DNA of 64,000 nucleotides, from NCBI GenBank assembly GCA_027619975.1, contig JAQCGX010000008.1, positions 8,719-72,718 of the forward strand, read 5' to 3'. The notes under the pieces are model-generated. The model had not been told where the DNA came from and searched no databases. It saw only the letters and a program-made list of their open reading frames with translations. Origin of the DNA: Nitrospinota bacterium (lineage in GTDB: Bacteria; Nitrospinota; Nitrospinia; Nitrospinales; VA-1). Both the position numbers and the translations under genes were made by a program. Shown in pieces: positions 14,071-52,096 of the stretch (within the stretch, counting starts at the first letter, position 1; each line of letters begins with the position of its first letter).

Positions 14071-14262
14071 TCCATCAACTTTCTAGCGGGGATGGAAGAG
14101 GTAAGAGAGGATAATGGGTTCTGATTGGGGGGAGTTAGGGGTGAACCCCCGGCCCACCAGGACCGGGAGTTCGGTGAAGAAAGCGATTGAAATGAGTATA
14201 GTTCGGTATTCCTGATAAATAAACAAAAAATTCGTAATTACGATAAATTTATTCTAATTTAT

Positions 14263-14437
14263 GGGCATCTCTAAAAATTAGTTTTCACAGAAAATAGACT
14301 CGTGTGCAAAATTTACTTAAATCAGTGGCACGGGCTTTCCAGCCCGTGCGGACAGGCAGGAAAGCCTGTCCTACTAAAACAAAAGACGCTTCTTTGAATT
14401 GGCGATTCGGCGTCGTTGTCAATTTTTAGAGATGCCC
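14263..14437 (-). mobile_element. MITE, TIR family 1, copy with minimal hairpin 2
   Basis: 175 bp with perfect 17-bp TIR GGGCATCTCTAAAAATT. Flanked by TTAT/TTAT. Interior holds GCACGGGC-TTTCCA-GCCCGTGC and GGACAGGC-AGGAAA-GCCTGTCC. Confidence 0.85.
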
Positions 14438-14641
14438 TTATTAGTATTTATTTCTGTACTCGGATTATTTTCCTCTTTTTTCATCCTTCATCGGTTTTTT
14501 TCTCTATATTTGCGCCTCAATTAAAGTGTTTTGTTGTGGGCGAGAGTGACGGTTTCCTCACGACTCTTTGACTGAACTGACACCTTCCCATATAAAAAAG
14601 GAAATTGTCCTTTTGCGCAGGTGTCCCTAACCTAAGGATCA

Positions 14642-18222: not shown

Positions 18223-19011
18223 TTAGGAAATGCCCGCTGGCGTGACCATGCTTTTTCGTATCACCTCCACCGTAGAATATTTTTTGATCCGGTAAATGGT
18301 TCCTTCCCCGGCACTGGACACGATGATATTTCTCTCCCGGTCCAGATCAATCCCACTCAAATCTTTGAATCGTTTCTTGAGAATCGGCAGAATATGGCCC
18401 CGCATATCGACGGCGATCAATTTTCCTGACTCCGTGGCCACCAGCAATCGACGATGTGGCGCTTCATAAACCAGCCCGTTAGGATTTCCAAGTTTTGGAT
18501 CTTTTGCCAGAACCGTGATCTGGAAATGATTGGCCGGGTCGATTCGATAGATGACGTTGCCAGCGGTGTCGGAGACAAACAGCAGTCCATCCGAGTCAAC
18601 CGCCAGACCGTGTAAAGATCGCGCACCTAATAGCGAAAAATTGATGGTCCCCAAGGGCTTTCCAGATTCCACATCGAAGCGGCGAACCACATCGATATCC
18701 GTCACATAGAGATTTTGGCCGGAAAGGGCCAACCCCCTGGGAGCGTTCAAATGCACGCCTTTTTTTCCAGAGCGAATGAAATCCCGGTCCACGGCTTTTC
18801 CCGTTGGGTCGATTTTGGCGATGAAAGCGTTATTATCTTTTGCGCCGGGGGAGCCTGAAACGTTGGAAACGTAGTACACTCCGGTGGAGGGATCGACGAT
18901 GAAACTTGCAGGCCCATCCATTCCCCGTATCTGGAAAGCGTGAGCGGGAGAGAAGAACAGGATGAGAAGTAGGGTGGCTAAAGGTAAAGGGCGCATGAAT
19001 GATGTTTTCAT
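18223..19011 (-). CDS. Secreted beta-propeller protein (NHL / SMP-30-like repeats)
   Basis: Repeats of the GLAxDxxGxLYVxD type. Start moved to M69 (MKTSFMRPLPLATLLLILFFSPAHA signal peptide) because the first 68 codons of ORF 18223..19215 translate REP-like repeats. Confidence 0.6.
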   Translation of the reverse strand: MKTSFMRPLPLATLLLILFFSPAHAFQIRGMDGPASFIVDPSTGVYYVSNVSGSPGAKDNNAFIAKIDPTGKAVDRDFIRSGKKGVHLNAPRGLALSGQNLYVTDIDVVRRFDVESGKPLGTINFSLLGARSLHGLAVDSDGLLFVSDTAGNVIYRIDPANHFQITVLAKDPKLGNPNGLVYEAPHRRLLVATESGKLIAVDMRGHILPILKKRFKDLSGIDLDRERNIIVSSAGEGTIYRIKKYSTVEVIRKSMVTPAGIS

Positions 19012-19083
19012 TAGATCAATGGTCACCTTTTTATGAAAAGACCTTTGCATAGGGTCATCCTCGTTGGCTTTGGAAAAGTATAA

Positions 19084-19207
19084 ATCCCCCCTGCCCCCTT
19101 CGCAGAAGGGGGAGAAGCGGGTCCCCCCTTTTTCAAAGGGGGTTAGGGGGATTTTGGAACTCCCAGGCCCCCTCTCCCTTTTAGGGAGAGGGTTGGGGTG
19201 AGGGTTT
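19084..19207. repeat. Cluster of GC-rich REP-like hairpins
   Basis: CCCCCTT-CGCAG-AAGGGGG (19094-19112), a CCCCCTTT..AAAGGGGG hairpin, and CCCTCTCCC-TTTTA-GGGAGAGGG. The last 41 nt (19167-19207) are identical to 20961-21001. Confidence 0.8.
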
Positions 19208-19259
19208 TTTATCAATATTTAAATTGACACAAAATCAGCCTACAACAGAAAATAATTGA

Positions 19260-19574
19260 ATGAAAATAAAAGATAAAAACAACCTGGTGTTTGGGATTTT
19301 ATTGATGAGTGCCACCGGCCTTGCGATGGGCTGGGTGGTGGACAGCCCCCTGCTGATGGCGGTGGCCGGAGGTCTTGGAGCCATTATAGGTGGCTTTGTC
19401 GGCTGGCTGGGCGGCAGGCTTTATCTGGTGATCATCTGCTTTGGTGTGCTCTTGGGCGCGTATCTTGGCAAGCTGTCCGGCGACCGGGACATATTGATCA
19501 TGGCCGCCGGAACCGGCGGTGCTATGGCCGGTTTCCTCGGCAACTTTATTACGTTGTTTGTGAGGAAGAGGTAG
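19260..19574 (+). CDS. Small Gly-rich membrane protein
   Basis: 104 aa with three hydrophobic, glycine-zipper-like helices. Confidence 0.45.
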   Translation: MKIKDKNNLVFGILLMSATGLAMGWVVDSPLLMAVAGGLGAIIGGFVGWLGGRLYLVIICFGVLLGAYLGKLSGDRDILIMAAGTGGAMAGFLGNFITLFVRKR

Positions 19575-20850: not shown

Positions 20851-21001
20851 TTCCCCCTCATCCTAACCTTCTCCCCCAGAGGGGAGAAGGAATTATTTTT
20901 TCCTTCATTCTGTCTATCACCCTGTGGGTGCCTCCCAAAAGAGGAAGAAGTGGGTGGTTTGCCCCCTCTCCCTTTTAGGGAGAGGGTTGGGGTGAGGGTT
21001 T
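20851..21001. repeat. Cluster of GC-rich REP-like hairpins
   Basis: 10-bp stem CCTTCTCCCC-CAGA-GGGGAGAAGG (20867-20890) and CCCTCTCCC-TTTTA-GGGAGAGGG. 20961-21001 is identical to 19167-19207. Confidence 0.8.
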
Positions 21002-21054: not shown

Positions 21055-21276
21055 GGATATCTCTAAAAATTGACTAAACGCTCCTAGTCGTCAACTTAAG
21101 GAGATGGCTTTGTTTCAGTGGGACAGGCGACCTACCCTTAAAGGTTATACGGAAGTGCGGAATTTAATTCCGCCTTTCCAGCCTGTCCGCACGGGCTGGA
21201 AAGCCCGTGCCACCGATATAAGAAATCCTTGTACAATGTTCGATTTCCTGTAATAAACTAATTTTTAGAGATGCCC
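21055..21276 (+). mobile_element. MITE, TIR family 1, full-length core
   Basis: 222 bp. The right TIR is perfect; the left is degenerate (GGATATCTCTAAAAATT). The core at 21118-21213 holds two 8-bp-stem hairpins. No clear TSD. Confidence 0.8.
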
Positions 21277-21674
21277 TTTAGAAAATACGCCCGTTTGAGT
21301 AATTAATAATTTTCTGCTCATCAATTTCTTTCCCACTTTTCTTCAATATTGCTGTTCCGATCAAGAACCCCAATCACCCCATCAACCTTTTGAATTTATT
21401 GATAATTATAAAGAACTCGCTTGACTTCACCCTTCCAAAATTTTTCGCTTCCGGTCCACCAACTGCATTTTATTAATTTTTATTAATGTTGCGTTAATAA
21501 TTTTTTAATTTTCCTTTTTTATAATGGGGTAATTACTTTCTCCTCCTCTCTTTGGAAGGGGTCCTCTACCATTGGACTCCTTCCTTTCTTTCTATCCAAG
21601 GATGAGAAGGACTGGATTAATAATTAAATCGCCATTCTTTTTGGTACATTTTTAATACTTGGTCAGGTGAGATA

Positions 21675-44473: not shown

Positions 44474-44509
44474 AAAGGCTTACGGATTTTTGTCCGTAAG
44501 CCTTTTTTT
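44474..44509 (+). terminator. Rho-independent terminator after the aconitase gene
   Basis: 13-bp stem AAAGGCTTACGGA / TCCGTAAGCCTTT followed by a T-run. Confidence 0.8.
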
Positions 44510-44549
44510 GTGGGAGGAAGTAAACGGGTAAACCACTGAGCAAAAATAA

Positions 44550-44681
44550 GAGCATCTCTAAATATTAGTTTTTACAGAAAATAGAATCGTCTGCAAAAGT
44601 TTCTTAAATCAGTGGCACTAAAACAAAAGAAGCTTCTTTGAATTGGCGATTCGGTGCCGTTGTCAATTTTTAGAAGTGCCC
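44550..44681 (-). mobile_element. MITE, TIR family 1, core-less short form
   Basis: 132 bp. Arms are collinear with 14263-14437, but CAGTGGCAC joins TAAAAC directly. TIRs are slightly degenerate. No clear TSD. Confidence 0.75.
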
Positions 44682-45056
44682 TTCATACTGAAGGATGTAT
44701 TTTTAATTGCGGAAACCGAGTACAAACCAAAGGTTTTACTTTCAATAGCAGTCACAATATTAAAAGGCTTAGGGGTTTTTCCCGTGAGTTTTTTTTGGGG
44801 GGAGAACTTGGAAGATCTCTCAATATAGAAATTCATTTACTTTATTCTGATAATAATGTGGTATTAATGTTAAGAGCAATACGCTAAAGATCCCCTGTCA
44901 CCTAATTACAGCGGGAGGATAGTAATGAGTATACTAGTAAGCAACCCTGAAACCCTCGGAGAGCTTTCCGTAAAAGTTAACGATATTTTCATTTATGGTG
45001 ACACTTAAATCAGGGAACTTATTCCCGCCTTAATCCGAGAATTTCATAATCAGCTC

Positions 45057-45728
45057 ATGAGCGACCCTAAAACCTTGGCCGCTTTTAAATCCCACTCTCA
45101 TTCCCCACCAGTTAGCACAGGGTTTCGCAAACCCCTCCCTTCCAAGCGTGGTCCGCTCCAAATCTTGCACCCAATGGGAAAACGACTCACCCAGAGGACC
45201 CAAATCCTCAAAGTGAAGTGCAAAAATAATTCCTCCTCGACACTCCCCCAAAAAACCAATCCTCAGGAACCATTTGAATCCTTAAAATTTCCCGAAAAAC
45301 GTTTCATGGACGCCCTGCCGGAGTTGATTGGTTTTATTGACAGAGATTTGAAGTATAAATTTAATAATACCAGTTATGAAGAGTGGTTCGGCTTAAAAGT
45401 GGAGAGCCTATACGATACCAAGGTCAGTGAGTTGCTCGGGTCTCATTTTAAAAAATTAAAACCCTTCTTTGAACAGACCTTGGAGGGAGAAATCGTCGAG
45501 ATTACGTCACCCGTGTATTTTAAAGGCACTCAAGGGAGAATGGTTCATTCAAGCTATTTTCCTTATTATGGGGAAAATGACACGGTTGAGGGTTTTTTTG
45601 CTGTCGTTAAAGGGGTGACCAATAAATCTGATTTCGAAAAAGCCAAACTCCAATTCTTGAAACCACCCTTCAAAAAAACCCTAATTCCTAATCACACAAT
45701 TGACAATCATATCGGAAAGCACCTTTAA
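45057..45728 (+). CDS. PAS-domain protein
   Basis: The C-terminal ~120 aa (FMDALPELIGFIDRDLKYKFNN..VEGFFAVVKGVT) look PAS-like. The N-terminal ~90 aa are low complexity, so the start is uncertain. Confidence 0.5.
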   Translation: MSDPKTLAAFKSHSHSPPVSTGFRKPLPSKRGPLQILHPMGKRLTQRTQILKVKCKNNSSSTLPQKTNPQEPFESLKFPEKRFMDALPELIGFIDRDLKYKFNNTSYEEWFGLKVESLYDTKVSELLGSHFKKLKPFFEQTLEGEIVEITSPVYFKGTQGRMVHSSYFPYYGENDTVEGFFAVVKGVTNKSDFEKAKLQFLKPPFKKTLIPNHTIDNHIGKHL

Positions 45729-45890
45729 CAGGTTGCTGAAAAACTATTTTTGGGACCTTAAAATGTTAATTTCAAGCTTACTGTTAACTTAAGAAAACCC
45801 GTAGCACAGGCTGGAAAGGCTGTGCCACTTAAAAGCAAAAACCTGCAAAACTTAACCCGCTGACGGATTTTTCTCTTTTTCAGCAACCTG
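45729..45890 (+). mobile_element. MITE, TIR family 2, deleted core
   Basis: 162 bp with perfect 15-bp TIR CAGGTTGCTGAAAAA. The TTAA/TTAA TSD has its left copy containing the PAS gene stop codon. Confidence 0.85.
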
Positions 45891-45959
45891 TTAAAGCTGG
45901 ATGGGGAAATCTAACTCTGGAGGGACTAATTCATTTCGGGTTAATTTAATCATAAAAAG

Positions 45960-46427: not shown

Positions 46428-46657
46428 CAGGTTGCTGGAAAACTATTTTTGGAACCTTAAAATGTTAATTTCAAGTTTACTGTTAATTTAAGAAAACCAG
46501 TAGCACAGGCGACCTATCCTTAAAGTCAATGCGGAAGTGCGGAATTTAATTCTGCCTTTCCAGCCTGTGCGCACAGCCTGGAAAGGCTGTGCCACTTAAA
46601 AGCAAAAACCTGCAAAACTTAACTCGCTGACGGATTTTTCTCTTTTTCAGCAACCTG
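46428..46657 (+). mobile_element. MITE, TIR family 2, full-length core
   Basis: 230 bp with TIR CAGGTTGCTGGAAAA / TTTTTCAGCAACCTG and CTAT/CTAT TSD. The core is homologous to the family 1 core. Confidence 0.85.
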
Positions 46658-51874: not shown

Positions 51875-52096
51875 GGGCATCTCTAAAAATAGACTAAATG
51901 TTCCTAATCGTTAATTTAAGGAGATGGCTTTGTTTTAGTGGGACAGGCGACCTACCCTTAAAGGTTATACGGAAGTGCGGAATTAAATTCCGCCTTTCCA
52001 GCCTGTCCGCACGGGCTAGAAAGCCCGTGCCACCGATATAAGAAATTCTTGTGCAATGTTCGATTTCCCGTAATAAACTAATTTTTAGAGGTGCCC
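51875..52096 (+). mobile_element. MITE, TIR family 1, full-length core, between ccmA and ccmB
   Basis: 222 bp with TIRs GGGCATCTCTAAAAAT / one mismatch on the right, and TGTA/TGTA TSD. Near-identical core to 21055-21276. Confidence 0.85.

Follow-up and report, generated by a model that had tools for sequence, protein, structure and literature searches.

Why should copies of one short repeat carry a hairpin core that is complete at one site, shortened at another and absent from a third, when the arms on either side of it remain collinear? The question is raised by a stretch of 64,000 nucleotides (the window, to which all positions given without a locus number refer), which holds six small repeats with terminal inverted repeats (TIRs). 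They belong to two families, family A with four copies whose termini read GGGCATCTCTAAAAAT and family B with two copies whose termini read CAGGTTGCTGAAAAA, and all are dispersed intergenic sequences of 132-230 bp with no coding capacity. The GGGCATCTCTAAAAAT terminal repeat has 9 matches in the window against 1.13 expected, and the hairpin patterns have 4 and 2 matches against 0.00 expected. It had been predicted from this DNA that the hairpin units are gained or lost independently of the arms, through either nested mobility of REP-like units or hairpin-driven deletion, and the sequences quoted in that prediction were all found where it had placed them. The six copies and their parts, none of the elements being assigned a strand, are as follows.

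14263-14437, unstranded: MITE of family A, subfamily A1, with the plain doublet; 175 bp, TIRs at 14263-14278 and 14422-14437
14259-14262 and 14438-14441: target site duplication (TSD) of this copy, TTAT
14325-14374, unstranded: core module of this copy, consisting of a GTGG tag, hairpins 1 and 2, and CTAC (the reverse complement of GTAG)
14328-14349: hairpin 1 of this copy, GCACGGGC-TTTCCA-GCCCGTGC
14350-14371: minimal hairpin 2 of this copy, GGACAGGC-AGGAAA-GCCTGTCC
21055-21276, unstranded: MITE of family A, subfamily A2, with the 'full' core; 222 bp
21121-21128 and 21181-21188: hairpin 2 stem of this copy, with the 46-nt insert at 21129-21174 and hairpin 1 at 21189-21210
44550-44681, unstranded: MITE of family A, subfamily A1, core-less; 132 bp, 43-nt deletion with its junction at 44617-44619
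45729-45890, unstranded: MITE of family B with a single hybrid hairpin at 45804-45825; 162 bp, one stem mismatch, TSD TTAA
46428-46657, unstranded: MITE of family B with the 'full' core; 230 bp, TSD CTAT
46503-46510 and 46563-46570: hairpin 2 stem of this copy, with the insert at 46511-46556 and hairpin 1 at 46571-46592
51875-52096, unstranded: MITE of family A, subfamily A2, with the 'full' core; 222 bp, TSD TGTA
51949-51994: 46-nt insert of this copy, with hairpin 1 at 52009-52030

Five of the six copies (14263, 44550, 45729, 46428 and 51875) are repeated without indels in three to eight independent assemblies at 99.8-100% identity. These assemblies come from different samples and pipelines, and each core state appears with its own flanks; the plain doublet of the 14263 copy, for example, recurs in L148-L151 and L154. 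The remaining copy, at 21055, joins the left flank of one element (copy X, TSD TGAA) to the right flank of another (copy Y, TSD TAAA). Copy X is found intact, with TGAA on both sides, in six other assemblies (L148-L150, L152, L153 and L155), where it is followed by DnaJ, PMSR and further genes up to PriA, and the window departs from this order exactly at the right end of the MITE (21055-21277). At this position the window is either an assembly chimera (a misjoin) or a real X/Y recombinant. Contig ends frequently fall within these MITEs, and at 21277 the window is probably a chimera. Both points could be taken to mean that errors of assembly or sequencing in a repeat rich in hairpins produced the core states. 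However, the indel-free recurrence of five copies, each state with its own flanks, largely refutes this, and we regard it as very improbable.

The window belongs to an uncultivated bacterium and is 99.8-100% identical to contigs of many metagenomes and of the fragmented MAG GCA_027624285.1, and its closest named aconitases, at ~80% identity, come from Nitrospinaceae MAGs. Further contigs of the window species, reached through the proteins encoded in the window, bring its sample to ~122 kb with nine MITE loci, and a related species contributed 91 kb with at least 15 MITE loci. A metagenome scan with the G-arm pattern returned 12 loci, all from one related organism (Ga0114931) and not from the window species, one of which is ~87% identical to window positions 18816-19547. 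A fourth A2 copy with the full core (L141 10416-10637) was reached from a single match of the stop-free translations of the MITEs, which were concatenated and compared with a protein database. A third family B copy, also full, lies at L170 16246-16475 and has the TSD CTAA.

The ends of the repeats resemble those of an IS5-family element. The TSDs are 4 bp long and TTAA/YTAR-like, and include TGAA and TAAA of copies X and Y; the core-less copy at 44550 has none (ATAA versus TTCA). The family A end GGGCAYCTCTAAAAAT also bounds a 1383-bp insertion sequence in a Sulfurospirillum MAG (L016 5446-6828 and five more copies), whose 345-aa ORF matches the IS5 family model NF033581 with 258 bits (cutoff 140) as well as PF01609 (DDE_Tnp_1). 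This host belongs to another phylum than the window species, and transposase genes, whether IS5 or other, were not found among the called genes in the ~122 kb sampled from the window species. A scan with the family A end across the genomes of 185,579 species returned at least 120 loci, which are spread over many phyla and frequently lie at the end of a contig; the TIR belongs to a widespread IS5 group. Among the matches listed, this end also bounds dozens of unrelated MITEs of 97-316 bp from many phyla, the other MITE families with the same TIR do not contain the hairpin core described here, and the only carrier of the same MITE is locus L061. That copy (L061 3807-3959) has a single hybrid hairpin, and its 5.7-kb contig bears the label 'Alphaproteobacteria bacterium OFTM99', which reflects either a binning error or horizontal spread.

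Orthologous regions of relatives, which the original prediction had proposed to compare, were reached via the neighbouring aconitase gene. Four of the window MITE sites have no MITE in relatives with 76-86% DNA identity. L138, which is 86% identical to the window, has none of the MITEs at 44550, 45729 and 46428, and its 46428 site is a precise empty site with a single CTAT; L136 is without the MITEs at 46428 and 51875. The comparison thus returned sites that are empty of the whole element, core included. As neither MITE nor core is present at these sites in a relative of 86% identity, the copies are recent insertions, each of which brought its own core. A copy of the relative (L131) was considered as an orthologue of a window copy and proved not to be one. 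Going by their ends, TSDs and empty sites, we classify the repeats as non-autonomous IS5-family MITEs.

The core itself has a regular design. Read with the G arm first, a complete core consists of YAGTRG, hairpin 2 (GSACAGGC-TTTCCA-GCCTGTSC), hairpin 1 (GCACRGSC-TGGAAA-GSCYGTGC) and CAC. It is made of two inverted 22-nt hairpins that are 0-2 nt apart, with their bodies adjacent and a GTRG tag on the outer side of every unit. GC-rich hairpins with an 8-bp stem and a 6-nt loop (TGGAAA or TTTCCA) are present in five of the six window copies. The outer tag is mostly GTGG, with GTAG in some units (14371-14374 in reverse complement; AGTAG in family B); whether GTGG counts as a tag would depend on the enzyme involved. 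Between partner hairpins the loop length varies and the stems show compensatory changes, which disfavour pairing between the two hairpins. In an alignment of 15 distinct hairpin units from the window species and the related species, stem pairing holds in 95.8% of cells and four of the eight stem pairs are changed on both sides, a result reached by none of 500 shuffles. The compensatory stem changes indicate that the hairpin structure is under some constraint, although template-switch repair can also produce changes of this kind in a DNA palindrome without selection. The structure might serve as a target for a protein or nuclease, or act as folded DNA or RNA.

In predicted single-stranded DNA folds, each hairpin folds on itself, the 46-nt piece forms a small inner hairpin and the terminal repeats pair. 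The predicted folds have z-scores of -5.5 to -9.5 for core-bearing copies versus -1.2 for the core-less 44550 copy, which is predicted to fold no better than shuffled sequence. A terminator role for the hairpins finds no support, as no T-run follows them. An Rfam search of the region matched no family, and a scan of viral contigs with hairpin 1 gave 0 matches.

The full cores at 21055 and 51875 had been described as carrying a 52-nt insert. The net addition is 46 nt, and 52 nt is the length of the whole enlarged loop (the 46 nt plus the 6-nt loop). This piece always occupies the same position, where the loop of hairpin 2 meets its 3' stem. It is confined to the window species (four A2 loci and two B loci), is absent from A1, A3, L061 and the A2-like copy of the relative (L132), and in the 1.37 Mb of retrieved DNA it lies within a MITE core in every case. 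The state called minimal turned out not to be a reduced form; it is the common doublet, which occurs in A1 of both species and in A2-like and A3 copies of the relative. With this distribution, the plain doublet is probably the ancestral core, and the state called full is this doublet with one lineage-specific addition of 46 nt. By parsimony, we infer that the 46-nt piece was a single lineage-specific gain that spread with transposing elements.

The shorter states, by contrast with this gain, look like deletions when their sequences are set against those of longer copies. The 44550 copy lacks the predicted 43 nt relative to the 14263 copy (132 versus 175 bp), running from CAGTGGCAC directly into TAAAAC with a 2-nt junction ambiguity (AC). 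Its arms share 89-93% identity with their counterparts in 14263, and by both arms it groups with 14263 and with L131 of the relative (89-94%), both of which bear the doublet. The hybrid hairpin of the 45729 copy, GCACAGGC-TGGAAA-GGCTGTGC with its one stem mismatch, had been proposed to be the product of a deletion between GCACAG repeats, and it has just this form: the copy is exactly 68 nt shorter than 46428-46657, the missing sequence lying between GCACAGGC and GCACAGCC. Family B comprises two full copies (46428 and L170), which are plausible parents of the hybrid, and one copy with a 68-nt deletion (45729). The 45729 copy directly adjoins the TAA stop of a PAS_4 ORF (45057-45728), and its TTAA target takes in this stop codon (45726-45732); the final ~15 codons of the ORF (past 45684) are without counterpart in the relative at L138.

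Further independent hybrids or deletions of the 45729 type occur at L061 and in copy Y of L165. The hybrids at 45729 and L061 3872-3893 both take their 5' arm from hairpin 2 and the remainder, loop and 3' arm, from hairpin 1, and both keep the expected mismatch. Because the units are palindromic, the two inverted hairpins double as imperfect direct repeats (GSACRGSC...GSACRGSC), and such hybrids are what slippage between them would leave. Copies X and Y have arms that are 100% identical, and in GCA_027624285.1 copy Y has lost 24 nt of its core, hairpin 1 being removed between GCAC and GGACA. In another strain, a 794-bp deletion with 2-3-nt microhomology at its junction extends from inside the 46-nt piece of copy Y over the G arm and the neighbouring FKBP gene. 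These strain variants, the best direct evidence for deletion in place, were assembled from metagenomes across a repeat of 222 bp and may in part be artefacts, L166 being especially suspect. The central claim of the original prediction, that the core changes independently of the arms, is borne out.

Truncated cores were also found in the relative, where deletions start in the loop of hairpin 2 and reach the terminal repeat (L129), begin after hairpin 2 (L127) or lie between two insert-derived AGGCA repeats (L126). Overall, deletion breakpoints are heterogeneous; they fall on short repeats and lie in stems, in loops, inside the insert or as far out as the terminal repeat. The original prediction had suggested that boundaries might always fall next to the GTRG tetranucleotide, as expected for Y1/RAYT cleavage, and had named heterogeneous breakpoints as a mark of decay. 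The boundaries hold no fixed position next to GTRG and give no sign of precise excision, which by that yardstick speaks for decay over precise excision of the RAYT type. In the lone core-less copy, at 44550, the junction is 1-3 nt from both GTRG tags, a position that leaves room for precise enzymatic excision in this single case. The surroundings of this copy differ from those in relatives: L138 5425-7317 and L140 12626-14410 hold a 1.85-kb PAS-HisKA sensor kinase gene between the aconitase and PAS_4 genes. In the window this gene is missing, and its place (44508-44682) is taken by the core-less MITE without a TSD, which suggests a rearranged site or a gene deletion associated with the MITE.

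The reading that we favour, with a probability of roughly 0.6, is that IS5-type MITEs carry a REP-like dimer as cargo, and that this cargo received one 46-nt addition and suffered deletions starting in the core. The element is mobilised through its TIRs by a DDE transposase, which moves it together with its core and generates the 4-bp target duplication. The TIRs, the TSDs and the empty sites show this step, and a matching transposase was observed solely in other phyla. The 46-nt piece would have been added once to the plain doublet in the window species, at the junction of hairpin 2 loop and 3' stem, and would have spread with the amplifying A2 subfamily and also reached family B. Hairpins promote slipped-strand deletion between flanking repeats. 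Slipped mispairing between the direct repeats of the two hairpins would leave one hybrid hairpin (45729, L061 and, with 24 nt lost, copy Y), and slippage at the foot of the folded dimer, where there are 2 nt of microhomology, would remove the whole core (44550). We infer slippage from the junction sequences and from general knowledge of hairpin-promoted deletion. The original interpretation is partly supported. Of its two causes, hairpin-driven deletion fits the hybrid and core-less forms; as regards nested mobility, no hairpin unit was found outside a MITE in ~122 kb of the window species. The core states in the window are best explained by one ancient 46-nt addition with recurrent deletion, rather than by ongoing mobility of hairpin units.

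What deletion leaves unexplained is the presence of one module, with its 46 nt, in two families whose arms are unrelated. Between A2 and B, similarity is limited to AGTRG...CCAC, where the cores share 87% identity across 96-98 nt. Local alignment scores between A and B arms are within the range of shuffled sequences, and an 11-nt collinear arm match (GTTAATTTAAG) has p ~0.06. A MAFFT alignment had hinted that family B is a nested or degenerate form of family A, an option rejected on these arm scores. Family B copies of the related species lack the hairpin module. Given the unrelated arms and the module-free family B of the relative, the module with its 46 nt must have changed host at least once. 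Two solo doublets were found in the 91 kb of the related species, at L133 7325-7362 (7325-7480 in wider extent) and L126 7800-7845. They consist of GTAGTGG, then GCGCGGAC-TTTCCA-GTCCGCGC and then CATGGGCAGG, without MITE arms and with unrelated flanks; GCGCGGAC is a third, compensated stem variant, and the L133 doublet sits between convergent HDOD and NAPRTase genes.

The relative (Ga0114931) also has small nested pieces of its own. Units of 36-39 nt with the form GCCTGT-ATTGCYAC...GCAAT and an AT-rich, variable middle occupy the junction of loop and 3' stem in either hairpin. They occur singly, doubled (L125 3165-3239) or tripled in tandem (L133 7371-7489), and are present in the cores of L124, L128, L130 and L134 too. 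Near-identical units appear in different contexts, such as L125 and the solo locus of L133, and none was found free in the 1.37 Mb of retrieved sequence. In form they resemble a tiny nested repeat family or mini-array. Such a pattern would seem to call for insertion or exchange on several occasions and is the best hint of nested mobility, though outside the genome of the window.

On the strength of such observations the GTRG...CYAC doublet may be seen as a REP/REPIN-like element that enters and leaves MITEs by means of a RAYT-type tyrosine (HUH) transposase, with the 46-nt and 36-39-nt pieces as smaller integrating elements. The restriction of A2/B homology to the module, its absence from family B of the related species, the solo doublets with their unrelated flanks and the 36-39-nt units at one junction in varied contexts all point this way, as do the outer GTRG tag on every unit, the covariation of the stems and the record of REP dimers within longer palindromic repeats (PMC3733652). 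However, neither a solo hairpin nor a solo 46-nt unit was found in the ~122 kb of the window species, cores travel with their MITEs and the empty sites are without everything, breakpoints are heterogeneous and on microhomologies, and the mismatched hybrid stems are products of deletion, not of insertion. A Y1 transposase (PF01797) is also missing from the Pfam annotations of called genes in window positions 1-64000 and its extensions, although a single-copy gene is easily missed. Moreover, the A2 and B stems and insert are about equally diverged, so that a single ancient transfer suffices for the sharing. On balance we consider mobility of this kind unlikely, a serious minority view for which the solo doublets and the shared module keep a REP/RAYT-like route alive. 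We are a shade more doubtful of its most specific form, in which the loop/3'-stem junction would serve as a specific integration site for hairpin-bearing mobile pieces of 36-46 nt and the dimer would move between unrelated MITEs by a single-strand, HUH/RAYT-like route. If true, this would place an SDR-like layer of 'parasites of parasites' outside the cyanobacteria, in a probably Nitrospinota lineage.

Recombination or gene conversion between copies, with the shared core as a patch of homology across which cores and arms are reassorted among copies and families, offers another route. L166 joins the T arm of A2 (with the Y flank), via 30 nt of shared hairpin, to a minimal core of A1 type and a G arm; the window joins X and Y flanks across a MITE; and among the A3 copies of the relative the insert sits in either hairpin alone or in both, a distribution that requires homoplasy or exchange. 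A further case is contig JAQBXW010000005.1 of GCA_027624285.1 (L001 13731-13735), which tracks the window to 3 nt past 45890, the end of a family B copy, and then departs from its order into SurE, PNPase and rpsO. The window order at 45890-45894 is backed by L002 and L156, and the break in L001 is either a repeat-associated misjoin or a rearrangement. Yet every one of the recombination examples lies at a repeat in a short-read metagenome assembly, the switch in L166 is 44 nt from a contig end, and chimeras explain them equally well. Exchange could also only spread the hybrid and core-less states and not create them, and we judge it improbable as their source.

The components of these elements have counterparts in known systems, and no new kind of system needs to be invoked: the sequences fit IS5-derived MITEs together with GTRG-tagged REP dimers in larger repeats. 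Like IS5-derived bacterial MITEs, they have 16-nt TIRs equal to those of the 1383-bp IS5-family element and 4-bp TSDs, and are short, non-coding and multi-copy with empty sites; unlike them, they carry a REP-like hairpin dimer as cargo, and an autonomous partner was not found in the ~122 kb. Correia/NEMIS and ERIC are MITE families that include full-length forms and forms with internal deletions or insertions at fixed positions. The present elements share with these the existence of length variants with an internal deletion or insertion, but those families belong to other transposase families and host phyla, and their variable part is not known to be a REP-like dimer.

GTAG-tagged REPs form 'HH' heterodimers, and some longer palindromic repeats regularly contain an embedded REP dimer (Di Nocera et al. 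2013, PMC3733652), examples being A. variabilis GTAG-15 and H. neapolitanus CGTC-1. Nitrospinota, the probable phylum here, is not among the phyla surveyed in that study. The units described here agree with this class in being palindromes of ~22 nt (20-40 bp in the class) with GTRG at the outer end, arranged as an inverted pair 0-2 nt apart with differing partners inside a longer inverted-repeat element. They differ in that the tag is mostly GTGG and that all units seen in the window species lie inside TSD-bearing MITEs. GTAG-tagged REPs also occur as abundant free extragenic copies, whereas the small sample available here has 0 free copies in ~122 kb of the window species and two solo loci in 91 kb of the related species. 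REPINs have a spacer, pair between their REPs, and are free intergenic elements with a cognate single-copy RAYT (Bertels & Rainey 2011, PMC3116915). The likeness to REPIN/RAYT systems consists of two inverted REP-like sequences that form one unit with conserved hairpin structure. The differences are that there is no spacer (0-2 nt), that each unit is predicted to fold on itself, that IS5-type ends apparently give mobility, and that no RAYT was seen in the sampled genes.

The small nested pieces invite comparison with the SDRs of Nostocaceae, which are reportedly 21-27 nt long and numerous, both free and nested. No SDRs are known outside the Nostocaceae, and one of them, SDR5, inserts into HIP1 (PMC5861425); HIP1 shows no enrichment in the organism of the window, and a cyanobacterial host was rejected on that ground. 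Both systems involve very small hairpin-bearing pieces nested at a specific site in other repeats, here of 46 nt and, in the relative, of 36-39 nt. In contrast to the 21-27-nt SDRs with their many free copies, the pieces found here have 36-46 nt, none is free in the 1.37 Mb, and one insertion event is enough for the 46-nt piece. If the nested pieces were autonomous integrators, they would be a second case of mobile DNA shorter than 50 nt.

These MITEs offer a natural example of hairpin-rich cargo that destabilises its carrier, with the module intact, enlarged, fused to a hybrid or wholly removed, and some of the core changes can be seen even when genomes of 99.8% identity are compared. They extend GTRG-tagged REP-like dimers to a lineage without earlier description, in which the dimers travel inside IS5-type MITEs. 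Repeats of 130-230 bp such as these also have a practical consequence, as they break metagenome assemblies or cause wrong joins; the window and the MAG GCA_027624285.1 both depart, at the edge of a MITE, from the order found in other assemblies.

Two other arrangements of repeats were observed. An exact 41-nt repeat (GCCCCCTCTCCCTTTTAGGGAGAGGGTTGGGGTGAGGGTTT), which consists of a hairpin and a G-rich tail, occurs at 19167-19207 and 20961-21001, with 1.8 kb between the two copies. It has no relation to the MITE core, and all loci in which it was found are from the window species. The relative has a MITE within a MITE at L127 3487-3610, where a family B element is inserted into a family A copy at its truncated right end.
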